Counted from the stretch's first letter, positions 23,114-25,708 are shown. The stretch is DNA of 42,933 bases from a virus (IMGVR_UViG_3300045988_062945:1-42933), one strand, 5' to 3'. Numbers and translations are program-made. Notes: generated from the letters alone by a model not told the origin.

Positions 23114-23139
23114 AAGCCCGGTGAATACACATCGGGCTT
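23114..23139 (+). terminator. Hairpin AAGCCCG-12 nt-CGGGCTT followed by ttt
   Basis: Read directly after the stop at 23067. Confidence 0.5.
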
Positions 23140-23145
23140 TATCTA

Positions 23146-23173
23146 TTGACTTTCGCTCCCTGTATGGTATAAT
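23146..23173 (+). promoter_or_regulatory. Sigma70-type promoter of the accessory island (TTGACT, 16 nt, TGgTATAAT)
   Basis: -35 at 23146-23151, TG at 23165-23166, -10 at 23168-23173. The SD ggaggtgggg and ATG 23195 follow. Confidence 0.65.
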
Positions 23174-23194
23174 TATTACAACGGAGGTGGGGCG

Positions 23195-23425
23195 ATGAAC
23201 TTCATACAGTACAACCCCAACCCAAGGGGAAACCGCGTCGGAGACTGCGTCATCCGGGCGATATCGGGGGCAACCGGACGGGATTGGGAGACAACATATG
23301 CCGGGGTGTCTGCCTGCGGGTTTGAGCCGGCGCTCAGGCTTCGCTATCTTATTTCACTCCACAGGTCCATACCCTGGGCTCTGAGAAGGTCGCCGATCGT
23401 GCTTGGAGGGCAGTCGGCGGTGTAG
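23195..23425 (+). pseudogene. Truncated gene: only about 45 N-terminal codons of a small Cys-peptidase-like phage/plasmid protein family
   Basis: MNFIQYNPNPRGNRVGDCVIRAISGATGRDWETTYAGV matches a remembered family of about 130 aa. After about 23330 the frame runs antisense through the next gene and loses resemblance. Confidence 0.5.
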
Positions 23426-24099
23426 CCGCGGTTCTCCGGCTCGGACTGCTCCGGGACGGTCGGTATCGGGGCGGCGGAGAGGCTTTCGCCCGTCAGTCCG
23501 ACAAGCTGAAGAAGCCTGTCAAGCGAGAGTATCCGCTTTCTGCTTCCGTGATATGCCCTCATTGCCGCGGCATAACGGGATTTTCCGCGTTTTGGAGGGG
23601 CATTCAGCTCCTCATCGGTCGCAACATAGTAATCGTTCTCGAAAACTCTTGTGCTGTATGTACACCCGCAGTTCGCCAGCACCTGTATAAGGACAAGGGT
23701 GTCCTTTGAGCGGCTCTGTTCGAATTCCGCGGAAAAGCAGAGCTTTTTGCCGTTCAGCACGCCGGGGAGCGTTTTGCAGTCCGGTCTGACCCTGCGCGAG
23801 AATTCCCTTATACACTGCTCCTTTTTTGCGTGGCTGAGGGCGTCTTCGCCCTCCGAAAGGCAGTTCATCATCGACTGAATGCTGTTTTTTTCACAGCGGA
23901 CGGTATAGTTCCGGCTGGTTCCGCAGGAATCGGGGTACAGCCTGACAAGAGAATCAAGGGGCTTGTCCAGCCTGCGGCAGAGCTCCTCCGTCAGCTTCAG
24001 CGTGAGATATGCGTCCTCGTCGCTTTTGTGAAGGATAACATCCCTGCCGATTACGCGGCAGTGAGCGGAAACAACCGCGACGGAGTTTTCGGCGGTGAC
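23344..24099 (-). pseudogene. 5'-truncated DnaQ-type exonuclease-BRCT gene fragment (ATG-initiated part 23344-23871 is a BRCT-like 175-aa ORF)
   Basis: The minus frame reads ...SAHCRVIGRDVILHKSDEDAYLTLKLTEEL (H-x4-D, Exo III-like), then GKKLCFSAEF...DYYVATDEE...SRYAAAMRAYHG..ILSLDRLLQLV (BRCT-like). There are no Exo I/II motifs and no SD. Confidence 0.5.
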
Positions 24100-24735
24100 G
24101 GTGCATGGTGGATCATCATCCTGTTCCTGTTCGCGATGTTCGGTGGATGGAACAACGGATGGGGCAACAACGGCGCAAACGGAGCCGGTTTTCAGGGATA
24201 TGCCACACGCGCAGACATCAACGAGGGCTTTGCGCTCAACGGGCTTGAAAACGGCATAAGGGGCATACAGCAGGGGCTGTGTGACAGCACCTATGCGCTG
24301 AACAACGGCATGATGCAGGGCTTCTGCGGGGTGGAAAAAGGATTCAACAGCCTTTCAAGCCAGCTTGCGGACTGCTGCTGCCAGAACCGCGAAGCCATAG
24401 CACAGGTGCGCTATGACATGGCGACACAGAGCTGTGCGACGAACAACGTCATACAGAGTGCCGCAAGAGACATCATAGACAGCACCAATGCCGGAACAAG
24501 GGCGATCCTCGACAAGATGTGTCAGCAGGAGATAGACGCGCTCAAGTCGCGTAACGCTGACCTTCTCGCGGATAACAACGCACTGCGTTTTGCACAGTCT
24601 CAGACCGCTCAGAACCAGTTTATCACGCAGGTCGGAAGCGATATCGTGAACAGGCTTCAGCCCACCCCGACACCGTCTTATATCGTCCAGAATCCCAACT
24701 GCTGCGGAAGTACCTTCTGCACCTGCGGCGGTTGA
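24061..24735 (+). CDS. Cys-rich (12 Cys) protein with an N-terminal hydrophobic segment and a G/N/W-rich linker
   Basis: It contains GAWWIIILFLFAMFGGWNNGWGNNGANG...DCCCQN...NPNCCGSTFCTCGG. The only nearby in-frame start is GTG 24061, which has no SD. The listed ATG-less extension to 23830 is antisense to the remnant. Confidence 0.55.
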   Translation: MSGNNRDGVFGGDGAWWIIILFLFAMFGGWNNGWGNNGANGAGFQGYATRADINEGFALNGLENGIRGIQQGLCDSTYALNNGMMQGFCGVEKGFNSLSSQLADCCCQNREAIAQVRYDMATQSCATNNVIQSAARDIIDSTNAGTRAILDKMCQQEIDALKSRNADLLADNNALRFAQSQTAQNQFITQVGSDIVNRLQPTPTPSYIVQNPNCCGSTFCTCGG

Positions 24736-24771
24736 GTGAGCCACACGGAATCACGGTAGGAGGTGCAAAAG

Positions 24772-25203
24772 ATGCCTGAATATACTTCAAACGCCGTCCA
24801 GAGAGTGGCGGCAAACGGCAATGTCCTTTTCACCGAGACGCCTGTTCCCTGCACCAAGGGATATGTCGTACACCGCGAAGGCGCGGGAGTTATAACTCTG
24901 CGCGGCATCGTGAATTCCTGCGCTCAGAGCGCAAGATACAAGGTGTCCTTCGGAGGCAATATTGCAATCCCGACGGGCGGCACAGTGGGTGCGATATCAA
25001 TTGCGCTTGCCATCGGTGGAGAGCCGATACCTGCAAGCTCGATGATATCCACCCCGGCGGCGGTGGGCGAGTATCAGAACGTCTCCGGATCACTGTTTGT
25101 CACGGTTCCTCGCGGGTGCTGCTACAATATTGCGGTAGAGAACACAAGCGAACAGGCGATCGAAATCCAGAACGCCAACATCATTGTTGAGCGCGTGGCT
25201 TAG
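24772..25203 (+). CDS. BclA C-terminal-domain-like (C1q/TNF-like) protein without a collagen region
   Basis: ATG 24772 lies 8 nt after AGGAGG. It contains ...RYKVSFGGNIAIPTGGTVGAISIALAIGGEPIP...IEIQNANIIVERVA, compared with the B. anthracis BclA end ...SASIIIEKVA (recollection). Confidence 0.6.
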   Translation: MPEYTSNAVQRVAANGNVLFTETPVPCTKGYVVHREGAGVITLRGIVNSCAQSARYKVSFGGNIAIPTGGTVGAISIALAIGGEPIPASSMISTPAAVGEYQNVSGSLFVTVPRGCCYNIAVENTSEQAIEIQNANIIVERVA

Positions 25204-25215
25204 GGGGGTGAGAGC

Positions 25216-25674
25216 ATGGACGAGATGTACCGCATGGGCGAACGCATAAAAGAGGAGCTTGATAAGATAGCCGAAAAGGGGCTGAACATCGGCAACCTCG
25301 ATCATGCGTACAAGCTCATAGATATGTACAAAGACCTGAAAAACGTCGATTACTGGGAAGCCAAAAAGGATTACTATGAGACCGACGGATACAGCGAGAG
25401 AAACCGGAAGCGTGACAGTCACGGCAGATACAGCCGGAGCGACGGATACAGCTATCGGGACGGCTCGGATGCTTATAACCGATATATCGACAGTAAGCGG
25501 ACATACAGACACAACGCGGGGGACGGAAACTGCAAACAGCGGCTGATGAACACCCTCGATGACTATATGGACAGCTTCGCCAGCAGAATGGAGGAAATGC
25601 TCCGGGACGCTGACTGCGCGGAAGAGCGCGAGACGATACAGCGGTATCTCAGCAAGCTGAACAGCCTTAGCTGA
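25216..25674 (+). CDS. Helical protein with an R/S/Y/D-rich low-complexity centre
   Basis: SD gggggtgag. It contains MDEMYRMGERIKEELDKIAEKG...GYSERNRKRDSHGRYSRSDGYSYRDGSDAYNRY. Confidence 0.6.
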   Translation: MDEMYRMGERIKEELDKIAEKGLNIGNLDHAYKLIDMYKDLKNVDYWEAKKDYYETDGYSERNRKRDSHGRYSRSDGYSYRDGSDAYNRYIDSKRTYRHNAGDGNCKQRLMNTLDDYMDSFASRMEEMLRDADCAEERETIQRYLSKLNSLS

Positions 25675-25682
25675 CAGGCGGG

Positions 25683-25708
25683 GGGGGAGAACGGAAACGC
25701 TCTCCCCC
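25683..25708 (+). terminator. GC hairpin GGGGGAGA-10 nt-TCTCCCCC closing the accessory island, abutting late motif copy 2
   Basis: Read directly. It has the same hairpin-CCCC/TTAAATG junction as at 15411-15431. Confidence 0.5.

Follow-up and report, generated by a model that had tools for sequence, protein, structure and literature searches.

A damaged copy of a mobile phage operon encoding a putative Cys-rich coiled-coil protein and a predicted TNF/C1q-like protein within a phage head module

Results

Organization of the unit between the MuF and scaffold genes

The viral sequence IMGVR_UViG_3300045988_062945 (42,933 nucleotides, hereafter called the window) carries between its MuF and scaffold genes a unit of three forward genes, here named C, D and E, which is preceded by two gene fragments. 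The temperate-phage genome in the window is circularly closed and 42,814 bp long; positions 1-119 and 42815-42933 are a 100% identical direct repeat of 119 nt, and genes for a holin, an amidase and an integrase lie near the end of the window. The features of the unit are collected in Table 1. An initial annotation had described here a near-consensus sigma-70 promoter, two hairpins, two gene wrecks and three forward genes, all of which are present, and had taken the whole for a self-contained unit. The insulated arrangement of hairpin, promoter, genes and hairpin stands for the window lineage, but the trio is not self-standing: a mobile phage operon, collinear in the order g1-g2-g3-C-D-E(-g7), has these genes as its second half, and the window unit is a damaged copy of it. 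The truncated first gene (g1'), which had been treated as a separate remnant, belongs to this same operon.

Table 1. Features of the unit and of its 3' border in the window (g1' and C', truncated copies; RBS, ribosome-binding site; aa, amino acids)
Feature	Position	Strand	Remarks
Stem-loop, then UUUAUCUAUU	23113-23140	+	-17.5 kcal/mol; z -4.7 versus shuffles
Near-consensus sigma-70 promoter, TTGACT-16-TATAAT, extended -10 TG	23146-23173	+	11/12 consensus positions
g1', first ~44 codons of g1	23195-23327	+	homology to L011 stops at 23327; phrog_3754
Captured host DNA, 3' 60% of a DnaQ-type exonuclease gene	23328-24042	-	C-terminal 232 aa of a ~378-aa protein
C', Cys-rich membrane-anchor/coiled-coil protein (predicted)	24043-24735	+	native start and RBS gone; phrog_16490, 5e-60
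D, TNF/C1q-like jelly-roll protein (predicted), 143 aa	24772-25203	+	intact; strong GGAGG RBS
E, 152 aa	25216-25674	+	intact; phrog_28802, 5e-35
Closing GC-rich stem-loop	25681-25710	+	-21.4 kcal/mol; z -3.0
Promoter-like site, TGGACT-17-TACAAT	25721-25749		just 3' of the closing hairpin
Cys_rich_KTR zinc-ribbon protein, 58 aa	25764-25940		Pfam E = 5.5e-21; 3' of the closing hairpin, 5' of the scaffold gene

In the PHROGs library, C, D and E correspond to families 16490, 20016 and 28802 (E-values 5e-60, 2e-51 and 5e-35, respectively), none of which has an assigned function. In the Butyrivibrio phage Ceridwen, in Dulem virus 33 and in several metagenomic prophages, three further conserved genes (g1, g2 and g3) precede C-D-E. 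Among 98 loci covered by iterated hidden Markov model (HMM) searches, the order g1-g2-g3-C-D-E was seen in 36, and the same order plus a seventh gene, g7, in 23 more. Incomplete versions keep the gene order, with D always right behind C and E always right behind D. The co-occurrence check proposed in the initial annotation thus had a positive outcome, C, D and E being found together elsewhere, in strict order, in most of 80 genome loci, about 60 of which have the complete operon. Reduced versions (g2-C-D, C-D-E and D-E) also exist, many of them at contig ends. At the MuF/scaffold site itself, the operon is intact in 9/9 close relatives of the window phage, namely four metagenomic phages (L011-L014) and five IMG/VR contigs (L189-L193).

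Replacement of the front half of the operon by host DNA

The window is 95-98% identical to these nine relatives on both sides of 23328-24042. Within this interval, all nine hold approximately 1.04 kb that codes for the remaining part of g1, for g2 and g3, and for the true start of C (MENYGMSPADY...), whereas the window has 715 bp of foreign DNA in place of 1,043 bp. The swap has cost the operon the 3' portion of g1, the whole of g2 and g3, and the first seven codons of C (MENYGMS) together with its RBS; the only possible starts left to C' are in-frame GTG codons at 24028 and 24061, both without a Shine-Dalgarno sequence. The called 76-aa open reading frame (ORF) at 23195-23425 extends past g1' into the foreign DNA, and BLASTP of its product against g1 of four other carriers (L002, L003, L007 and L001) aligned residues 3-43 only.

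A full-length homologue of the exonuclease fragment, P0241, has 378 aa and is 99% identical to it. Neither the fragment nor P0241 gave a Pfam match; distant homologues carry RNase_T and DEDDh_C (P0249) or RNase_T and BRCT (P0250), and the original designation as an exonuclease-BRCT fragment is accordingly sound at the family level. In the host contigs L100, L101, L102, L183 and L184, the full-length gene adjoins that of RNase J, and in several such contigs it abuts an inverted scar consisting of the MuF C-terminal segment, orf65, the promoter and g1'. The junction between g1' and the exonuclease gene is common to the window and L100/L101, with 98.4% identity, and the junction between the exonuclease gene and C lies on a microhomology of ~10 nt, CCxGxCGATT. 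Since three contigs from other assemblies carry junctions 100% identical to those of the window, the variant circulates. Most simply, an intact phage recombined with a prophage scar, by homologous recombination at the left junction and by an illegitimate event at the right one. We regard this account of the anatomy and history of the region as very probable.

The operon in the window genome is probably crippled. With half of the operon missing and C deprived of its start, C', D and E may be inert leftovers of the capture that have not yet decayed, a possibility that deserves real weight even if we rather doubt it, and one that is compatible with any reading of the intact operon. The 100% identity of the variant in the other samples that hold it suggests a recent event. 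In C, D and E, the window differs from its relatives mostly by synonymous changes (ratio of nonsynonymous to synonymous changes, pN/pS, 0-0.2), and this bias reflects divergence among intact copies and not selection after the damage. On the other hand, the promoter, D and E are untouched, D and E keep strong RBSs, the two in-frame GTG codons might still start a near-full-length C, and reduced operon versions persist elsewhere, though many of these lie at contig ends.

Several further observations concern the same junction region. The stretch of the window from the MuF C-terminal region through orf65 and the hairpin to the promoter (22172-23173) recurs as the inverted scar in host contigs with 82-98% identity; the copies in L102 (9149-10381), L183 and L184 lie by the host exonuclease gene. 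In two of the relatives, L190 and L192, approximately 1 kb of the same MuF 3' region is replaced by unrelated sequence, which suggests a hot spot of recombination at the MuF 3' end. The host contig L102, with its full-length exonuclease gene, also holds an array of clustered regularly interspaced short palindromic repeats (CRISPR; L102:10430-14440) with 60-odd repeats (GGATCACCCCCGCGTGTGCGGGGACAAG, 61-nt period), several spacers of which are 87-97% identical to different parts of the window phage.

Predicted fold of protein D

Protein D starts with MPEYTSNAVQ, contains a conserved CC pair (PRGCC) and ends in QNANIIVERVA. Its AlphaFold2 (AF2) model, built on an alignment of 42 sequences, is all-beta, with a predicted local distance difference test (pLDDT) score of 86.5 and a predicted template modelling (pTM) score of 0.83, and it displays the compact ten-stranded jelly roll of ~130-150 residues that marks the C1q-TNF superfamily. 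The best Foldseek matches in the PDB were the F-BclA tip (9h38), BxpB (8d02) and ExsFA (7r1m and 9h3d), followed by Chlamydia Pgp3, ectodysplasin (EDA), 4-1BBL, C1q domains and BclA (1wck). The Foldseek probability was 1.0 for F-BclA, BxpB, ExsFA, EDA, C1q and BclA, and the TM-scores against BclA, F-BclA and ExsFA-BxpB were ~0.65-0.7. Among predicted viral structures, D best matched stand-alone proteins of ~140 aa from uncultured phages, some of them labelled 'BclA protein', and then collagen-C1q proteins of giant viruses as well as a fibritin-like protein.

The resemblance of D to the BclA C-terminal domain (CTD) and to C1q/TNF proteins, first noticed by eye, is therefore upheld by AF2 and Foldseek at the level of the fold. 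It is a likeness in fold only, because the sequence searches were empty: D had no Pfam match at E<=0.1, BclA_C included, its profile found no PDB sequence at E<=10, and hhalign of the profile against a presumed BclA CTD sequence gave a probability of 1.1%. The C-terminal strand of D, NANIIVERVA, resembles that of BclA, which we take to be SASIIIEKVA.

The D family comprises >3,200 clusters at 90% identity and 850 at 50%. The 150 best representatives (~100-196 aa) are stand-alone proteins without exception, with no fused stalk, and D has neither a collagen-like stalk nor an exosporium-targeting leader. The CC pair, as PRGCC or PCGCC, was found in 72/73 homologues. Like the Cys tail of C, it is near-universal, and the Cys counts of the C tail and of D are weakly correlated (r = 0.2).

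Protein C and its distribution

C is the sole protein of the cassette with a hydrophobic N-terminus; in g1, g2, g3, D, E and g7, sequence prediction found no signal peptide and no transmembrane segment. Its layout is a short N-terminal tail, a short hydrophobic segment with Gly/Trp flanks, a Gly/Asn-rich linker, a long helix, an invariant CCC and a Cys-rich tail (NPNCCGSTFCTCGG). The first of the three genes had been described as coding for a 12-Cys protein with a hydrophobic N-segment; it is Cys-rich and has that segment, but 11 cysteines, counted by eye, lie in the homologous part. In the AF2 model, which is poor (pLDDT 54) but agrees with this layout, helices span residues 29-39, 74-98 and 108-212, the last being ~105 residues or ~15 nm long. 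The hydrophobic stretch has 12-15 residues, and a positive-inside analysis was uninformative because both flanks are almost uncharged.

The C family has at least 7,995 clusters at 90% identity. It occurs in Clostridium perfringens phages, in crAss-like Suoliviridae, in Bacteroides phage C3_41T2LP and in viruses assigned to Methanomassiliicoccales, and the Bacteroides type is also present in hundreds of IMG/VR contigs. Across these bacterial and archaeal viruses, with hosts from three phyla, the CCC in the long helix is the only invariant feature. Records of crAss-like phages label C 'spike protein/glycoprotein' or 'viral fiber'.

In the Bacteroides-type phages, C heads a collinear module of its own, followed by a beta-rich protein, a beta-plus-coil protein, sometimes an R/D/Y-rich protein, and DUF7841, an order kept in all but a few of 80 IMG/VR loci surveyed. 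When g1, g2, g3, D, E and g7 were compared by hhalign with the neighbours of C in these phages, nothing matched except C itself (100% probability). The parallel between the two sets of partners (beta-rich CC, R/D/Y-rich and beta-plus-coil proteins) is positional and compositional only. For the partner protein of C in the C. perfringens phages, Ena/DUF3992 was considered and rejected for want of a Pfam match.

The C allele of the window has ~85% DNA identity to those of L011-L014, as against 96% for D and 99% for E, and the C protein of another contig (P0121) is 97% identical to that of the window. The C gene thus appears to be mosaic or exchanged between lineages.

The accompanying proteins E, g1, g2, g3 and g7

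The family alignment of E shows conserved helical ends and a length-variable centre rich in Arg, Ser, Tyr, Gly and Asp with a recurrent RRDSMGRYS, which agrees with the helical third protein with an R/S/Y/D-rich centre of the initial annotation. The g2 protein has a variable Gln/Pro/Tyr-rich head, a beta domain of ~60 aa and a 'YVTxEEFxxL' helix; g3 is a helical protein of ~70 aa, and g7 is often present as the seventh gene. The Tyr/Arg/Ser-rich make-up of E and g2 presumably recalls that of the coat proteins CotG or CotC.

Intact g1 has ~125 aa. Its Cys18, His98 and Asp109 are invariant among 32 sequences, which suggests a papain-like Cys-His-Asp protein and makes the earlier term 'Cys-peptidase-like' for the truncated first gene a reasonable one; searches of Pfam, NCBIfam and PDB profiles with g1 matched no curated peptidase family and no solved structure. 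Two phage records label g1 homologues 'peptidase'. As a lone gene, g1 is found in Tsamsa-like Bacillus phages, Geobacillus phage GBK2, Lak phages and Pakpunavirus. The families GerQ, Tgl and CotG, considered for g2, g1 and E, respectively, were dropped for lack of family support. A role of g1 as a C39-like peptidase that cuts C at the double-glycine FGG was also set aside, the Gly-rich motif being present in phages without g1 as well.

Genomic context, control elements and hosts

In loci with recognizable neighbours, the usual site of the operon is 3' of the endolysin/holin genes, on the same strand, and 5' of the integrase gene or the prophage end. It lies on the same strand as the late genes. 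The window lineage has it between MuF and scaffold, as do more distant contigs, of which several are assigned to Lachnospiraceae. C has antirepressor, recombination or replication genes as its neighbours in the C. perfringens phages and Bacteroides phage C3_41T2LP. The position thus differs between phage lineages, in line with the accessory character first proposed for the unit. A gene for a GerE/LuxR-type helix-turn-helix (HTH) protein of 68-71 aa, resembling sigma-70 region 4, lies just 5' of the operon or within it in 27 loci (for example L003:5894-6109 and L008:5955-6161) and has no counterpart in the window; it may be a dedicated regulator of the operon.

The first hairpin is a terminator-like insulator behind the MuF/orf65 unit and lies within a segment that is 95-97% identical in L011-L014. 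These four relatives have an identical promoter, 49 nt 5' of g1. The strong sigma-70 promoter is a feature of the window lineage alone, and the upstream regions of other lineages score at background level. The G+C content is 0.55-0.59 within the unit and 0.51-0.57 in the flanks and hence not anomalous, and an Rfam search of the region gave no match. On its 3' side, the unit is followed by the promoter-like site, the Cys_rich_KTR zinc-ribbon gene, the scaffold gene and the major capsid gene.

The full operon is present in Ceridwen, a phage of Butyrivibrio fibrisolvens for which only lytic growth was seen and which its authors judged virulent (PMC7372960). Contigs that bear D are assigned to Oscillospiraceae, Lachnospiraceae, Acutalibacteraceae, Lachnospira, Agathobacter and uncultured Bacilli/'Mollicutes'. 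Of these hosts, Butyrivibrio fibrisolvens, Lachnospira, Agathobacter and the uncultured Bacilli/'Mollicutes' are described as non-spore-forming.

Endonuclease genes lie in or beside the cassette in three unrelated phages (L001:7518-8312, L002:5410-5961 and L017:3892-4512). In Ceridwen, the gene between D and E looks HNH-like by eye and is recorded as hypothetical; the gene in Dulem virus 33 is annotated 'endonuclease', and that in a Bacteroides phage I-HmuI-like. In the metagenomic prophages L003 and L007, the endolysins bear dockerin domains, and the MuF-like proteins, which are polyvalent and giant (>3,000 aa), contain ART-PolyVal/LPD3 domains. In the window itself, the major capsid protein (26659-27825) ends in an SbsC-like immunoglobulin-type domain (residues 308-386), which is a built-in surface decoration. 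The product of an ORF in the early region (5691-6311) begins with a Gly/Ser/Tyr/Asn/Asp tandem repeat (GSGNGSGYGSG..., 12-nt DNA period) and is a second low-complexity protein of the window phage.

Discussion

A moron-like operon with a TNF-like protein

Hendrix and colleagues reportedly described morons as promoter-gene-terminator inserts in phage late operons. The unit of the window lineage is likewise flanked, by a hairpin with a sigma-70 promoter at its 5' border and a second hairpin at its 3' border; its site varies among phages, and it has survived partial deletion. Unlike a moron, it has six or seven genes and not one, its base composition does not deviate, and its promoter is unrecognizable in most lineages. 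A moron would also be missing from some otherwise near-identical phages; all nine close relatives carry the unit, the window variant has lost half of it and still circulates, and other lineages have it at another site. The moron-like packaging and the fold of D are of kinds already known. What is new, within the libraries and papers searched, is the operon itself, the split arrangement of an anchored stalk and a TNF-like head, and the spread of C across domains of life; literature searches on these PHROG families, on phage TNF-like or BclA proteins and on prophage exosporium genes returned nothing relevant.

Possible role of C and D during infection

We tentatively favour a reading in which C and D form a membrane-anchored, Cys-stapled coiled-coil stalk with a TNF-like trimer that acts during infection, even though we consider this mechanism possible rather than likely. 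C would be a single-pass membrane-anchored coiled-coil stalk of roughly 15 nm, in which interchain cysteines, those of the invariant CCC and of the Cys tail, would staple the chains to one another. For D, we envisage a TNF/C1q-like trimer that cooperates with the stalk or caps it via the conserved CC pair. E and g2 may serve as low-complexity adaptor or matrix proteins, and g1 as an enzyme for processing or cross-linking. Expression of the complex would accompany that of the late genes in infected cells and, in the window lineage, would also start from its own sigma-70 promoter. The complex would act at the envelope or the cell membrane, either in superinfection exclusion or as a contributor to lysis and egress, and not on the spore.

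A stalk with a trimer is favoured because C has the long helix, the CCC and the Cys tail, and because D belongs to a trimer-forming fold class, is encoded right behind C and has a CC of its own. Considering that the hydrophobic anchor is common to siphoviruses, crAss-like podoviruses and archaeal viruses, the partner of C is more likely to be the lipid bilayer than a particular capsid. The same parts list is known from TNF ligands such as ectodysplasin, with a type II anchor, a stalk and a TNF trimer, and from Pgp3, with a coiled coil and a TNF-like domain. In contrast to these proteins, stalk and head would here be separate polypeptides, D has no export signal, and the contact between C and D is a conjecture.

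Several points weigh against this interpretation. Without an export signal, D would reach an outward-facing C stalk only after lysis, and its contact with C is suggested only by gene linkage and the shared conserved cysteines. The hydrophobic segment of C is short for a transmembrane helix, with uncharged flanks and an ambiguous topology, and the AF2 model of C is of low confidence. The partners of C in Bacteroides phages are, by hhalign, not homologous to D, E or g2. The strong sigma-70 promoter of the window lineage fits expression from a prophage as well as lytic growth. No protein of the cassette found anything significant in Pfam, NCBIfam, PDB sequence-profile or PADLOC searches, the last with models of known anti-phage defence systems, and no family annotation supports a function for any protein of the operon. 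The whole explanation, with anatomy, history and mechanism taken together, is offered as a tentative one, which in our judgement falls a little on the doubtful side.

Alternative readings

The main rival, which we consider unlikely, places the products on the virion, as did the capsid-decoration alternative of the initial annotation. C would form a trimeric shaft and D its distal knob, on capsids or tails, with E, g2 and g3 as assembly or adaptor parts; the fibre would be made late and aid gut adhesion or stability, and its cysteines would cross-link after release. TNF/C1q fibre knobs are common among the viral Foldseek matches of D (the giant-virus collagen-C1q, fibritin-like and phage 'BclA protein' entries), and the names given to C in crAss records point the same way. 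Export signals are absent from all cassette proteins but C, so that these proteins would come together in the cytoplasm, the site of virion assembly. The operon is on the strand of the late genes and, in several lineages, inside the head module; in Bacteroides phages, the analogue of g2 has a coiled-coil tail that matches a PHROG labelled 'virion structural protein', and a spread across host phyla within one habitat fits a virion part that faces the environment. However, the part of C that is conserved across viruses is a hydrophobic segment of membrane type and not a plausible capsid-binding domain. The cassette is also insulated by its own sigma-70 promoter and hairpins in the window lineage, its position varies between lineages, with C beside antirepressor, recombination or replication genes in the C. 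perfringens phages and in C3_41T2LP, and a variant without g1-g3 and the C start circulates as a closed genome.

A second and improbable alternative is that C acts as an accessory or regulator of lysis, a spanin-like or holin-T-like membrane protein that tunes or completes membrane disruption with soluble partners. The i-spanins have an N-terminal anchor, a coiled coil and conserved cysteines, and the holin T of phage T4 has a single transmembrane segment. The layout of C is the same as that of an i-spanin and resembles that of holin T, its Gly/Trp-flanked hydrophobic segment resembles fusion peptides, and, as with the two-component spanins Rz/Rz1 of phages of Gram-negative bacteria, the gene often lies by those for holin and endolysin and has a small partner gene on its 3' side. 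The operon stands right behind holin and endolysin in most Firmicutes loci, and C of crAss cr53_1 behind a holin and a LysB/FtsL-like protein. These phages, however, already have holins and endolysins; the hosts are mostly Gram-positive (Clostridia) or wall-less archaea, without an outer membrane to fuse; and D is a 143-aa jelly roll with neither a lipobox nor a signal peptide. The operon lacks the embedded or overlapping genes of Rz/Rz1, its five additional genes bring the number to seven, many for such a task, and C is far from the lysis genes in the window lineage, in C. perfringens phages and in Bacteroides phages.

Less probable still is a phage-made, self-assembling and Cys-cross-linked surface structure in which a hydrophobically anchored C stalk carries a D cap, the Tyr/Arg/Gln-rich E and g2 form a matrix, and the papain-like g1 serves for processing or cross-linking. 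If true, it would be an analogue of spore nap or coat layers, 'cured' by oxidation after release, and would sit on virions or on the envelopes of lysing cells for survival or adhesion between hosts; this would explain why C is common to viruses of Bacillota, Bacteroidota and methanogenic archaea in one anaerobic habitat.

D shares the ~140-residue TNF/C1q jelly roll with the BclA CTD, F-BclA and ExsFA-BxpB, which form the exosporium nap, the appendage tip and the anchor in the Bacillus cereus group; ExsFA, like D, is a stand-alone domain, and the exosporium set also has Cys-rich partner proteins. Unlike these proteins, D has no detectable sequence homology to them and is encoded by phages, including phages of non-sporulating hosts. 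The least likely reading is that of the initial annotation, a lysogenic-conversion cassette expressed from the prophage, in which a Cys-rich protein and a BclA-type protein would alter the spore or its exosporium or, in a broader sense, the surface of the cell. It can cite these closest solved structures of D, its C-terminal strand, which is similar to that presumed for BclA, the make-up of E and g2 presumably reminiscent of CotG/CotC, the strong housekeeping-type promoter of an insulated unit in the window lineage, the lysin-integrase interval as a classic moron site, and the GerE/LuxR-type gene often found 5' of the operon. The survey of hosts already suggests that the cassette is just as frequent in phages of asporogenous hosts. 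The reading is very improbable, because Ceridwen, with the full operon, was seen only in lytic growth and judged virulent, C is common to crAss-like, Bacteroides and archaeal (Methanomassiliicoccales) viruses, whose hosts form no spores, the operon is present in prophages assigned to Lachnospira, Agathobacter and uncultured Bacilli/'Mollicutes', which are described as non-spore-forming, the promoter is not conserved beyond the window lineage, D has no BclA_C membership by sequence, no collagen stalk in 150 representatives and no exosporium leader, and GerE-type HTH domains are generic.

Implications

Of the gene families of gut phages that lack annotation, those of C and D rank with the more common ones. 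Within a single habitat, C is shared by viruses of different host phyla and even domains, which is unusual and hints at a function linked to the membrane or the gut and not to a particular cell wall. The TNF/C1q fold of D is the first structural clue, and Ceridwen provides a cultured carrier of the whole operon. The window documents the capture of host DNA by a phage via a prophage scar, and its variant of the operon is a natural partial knock-out that can be compared with intact relatives.

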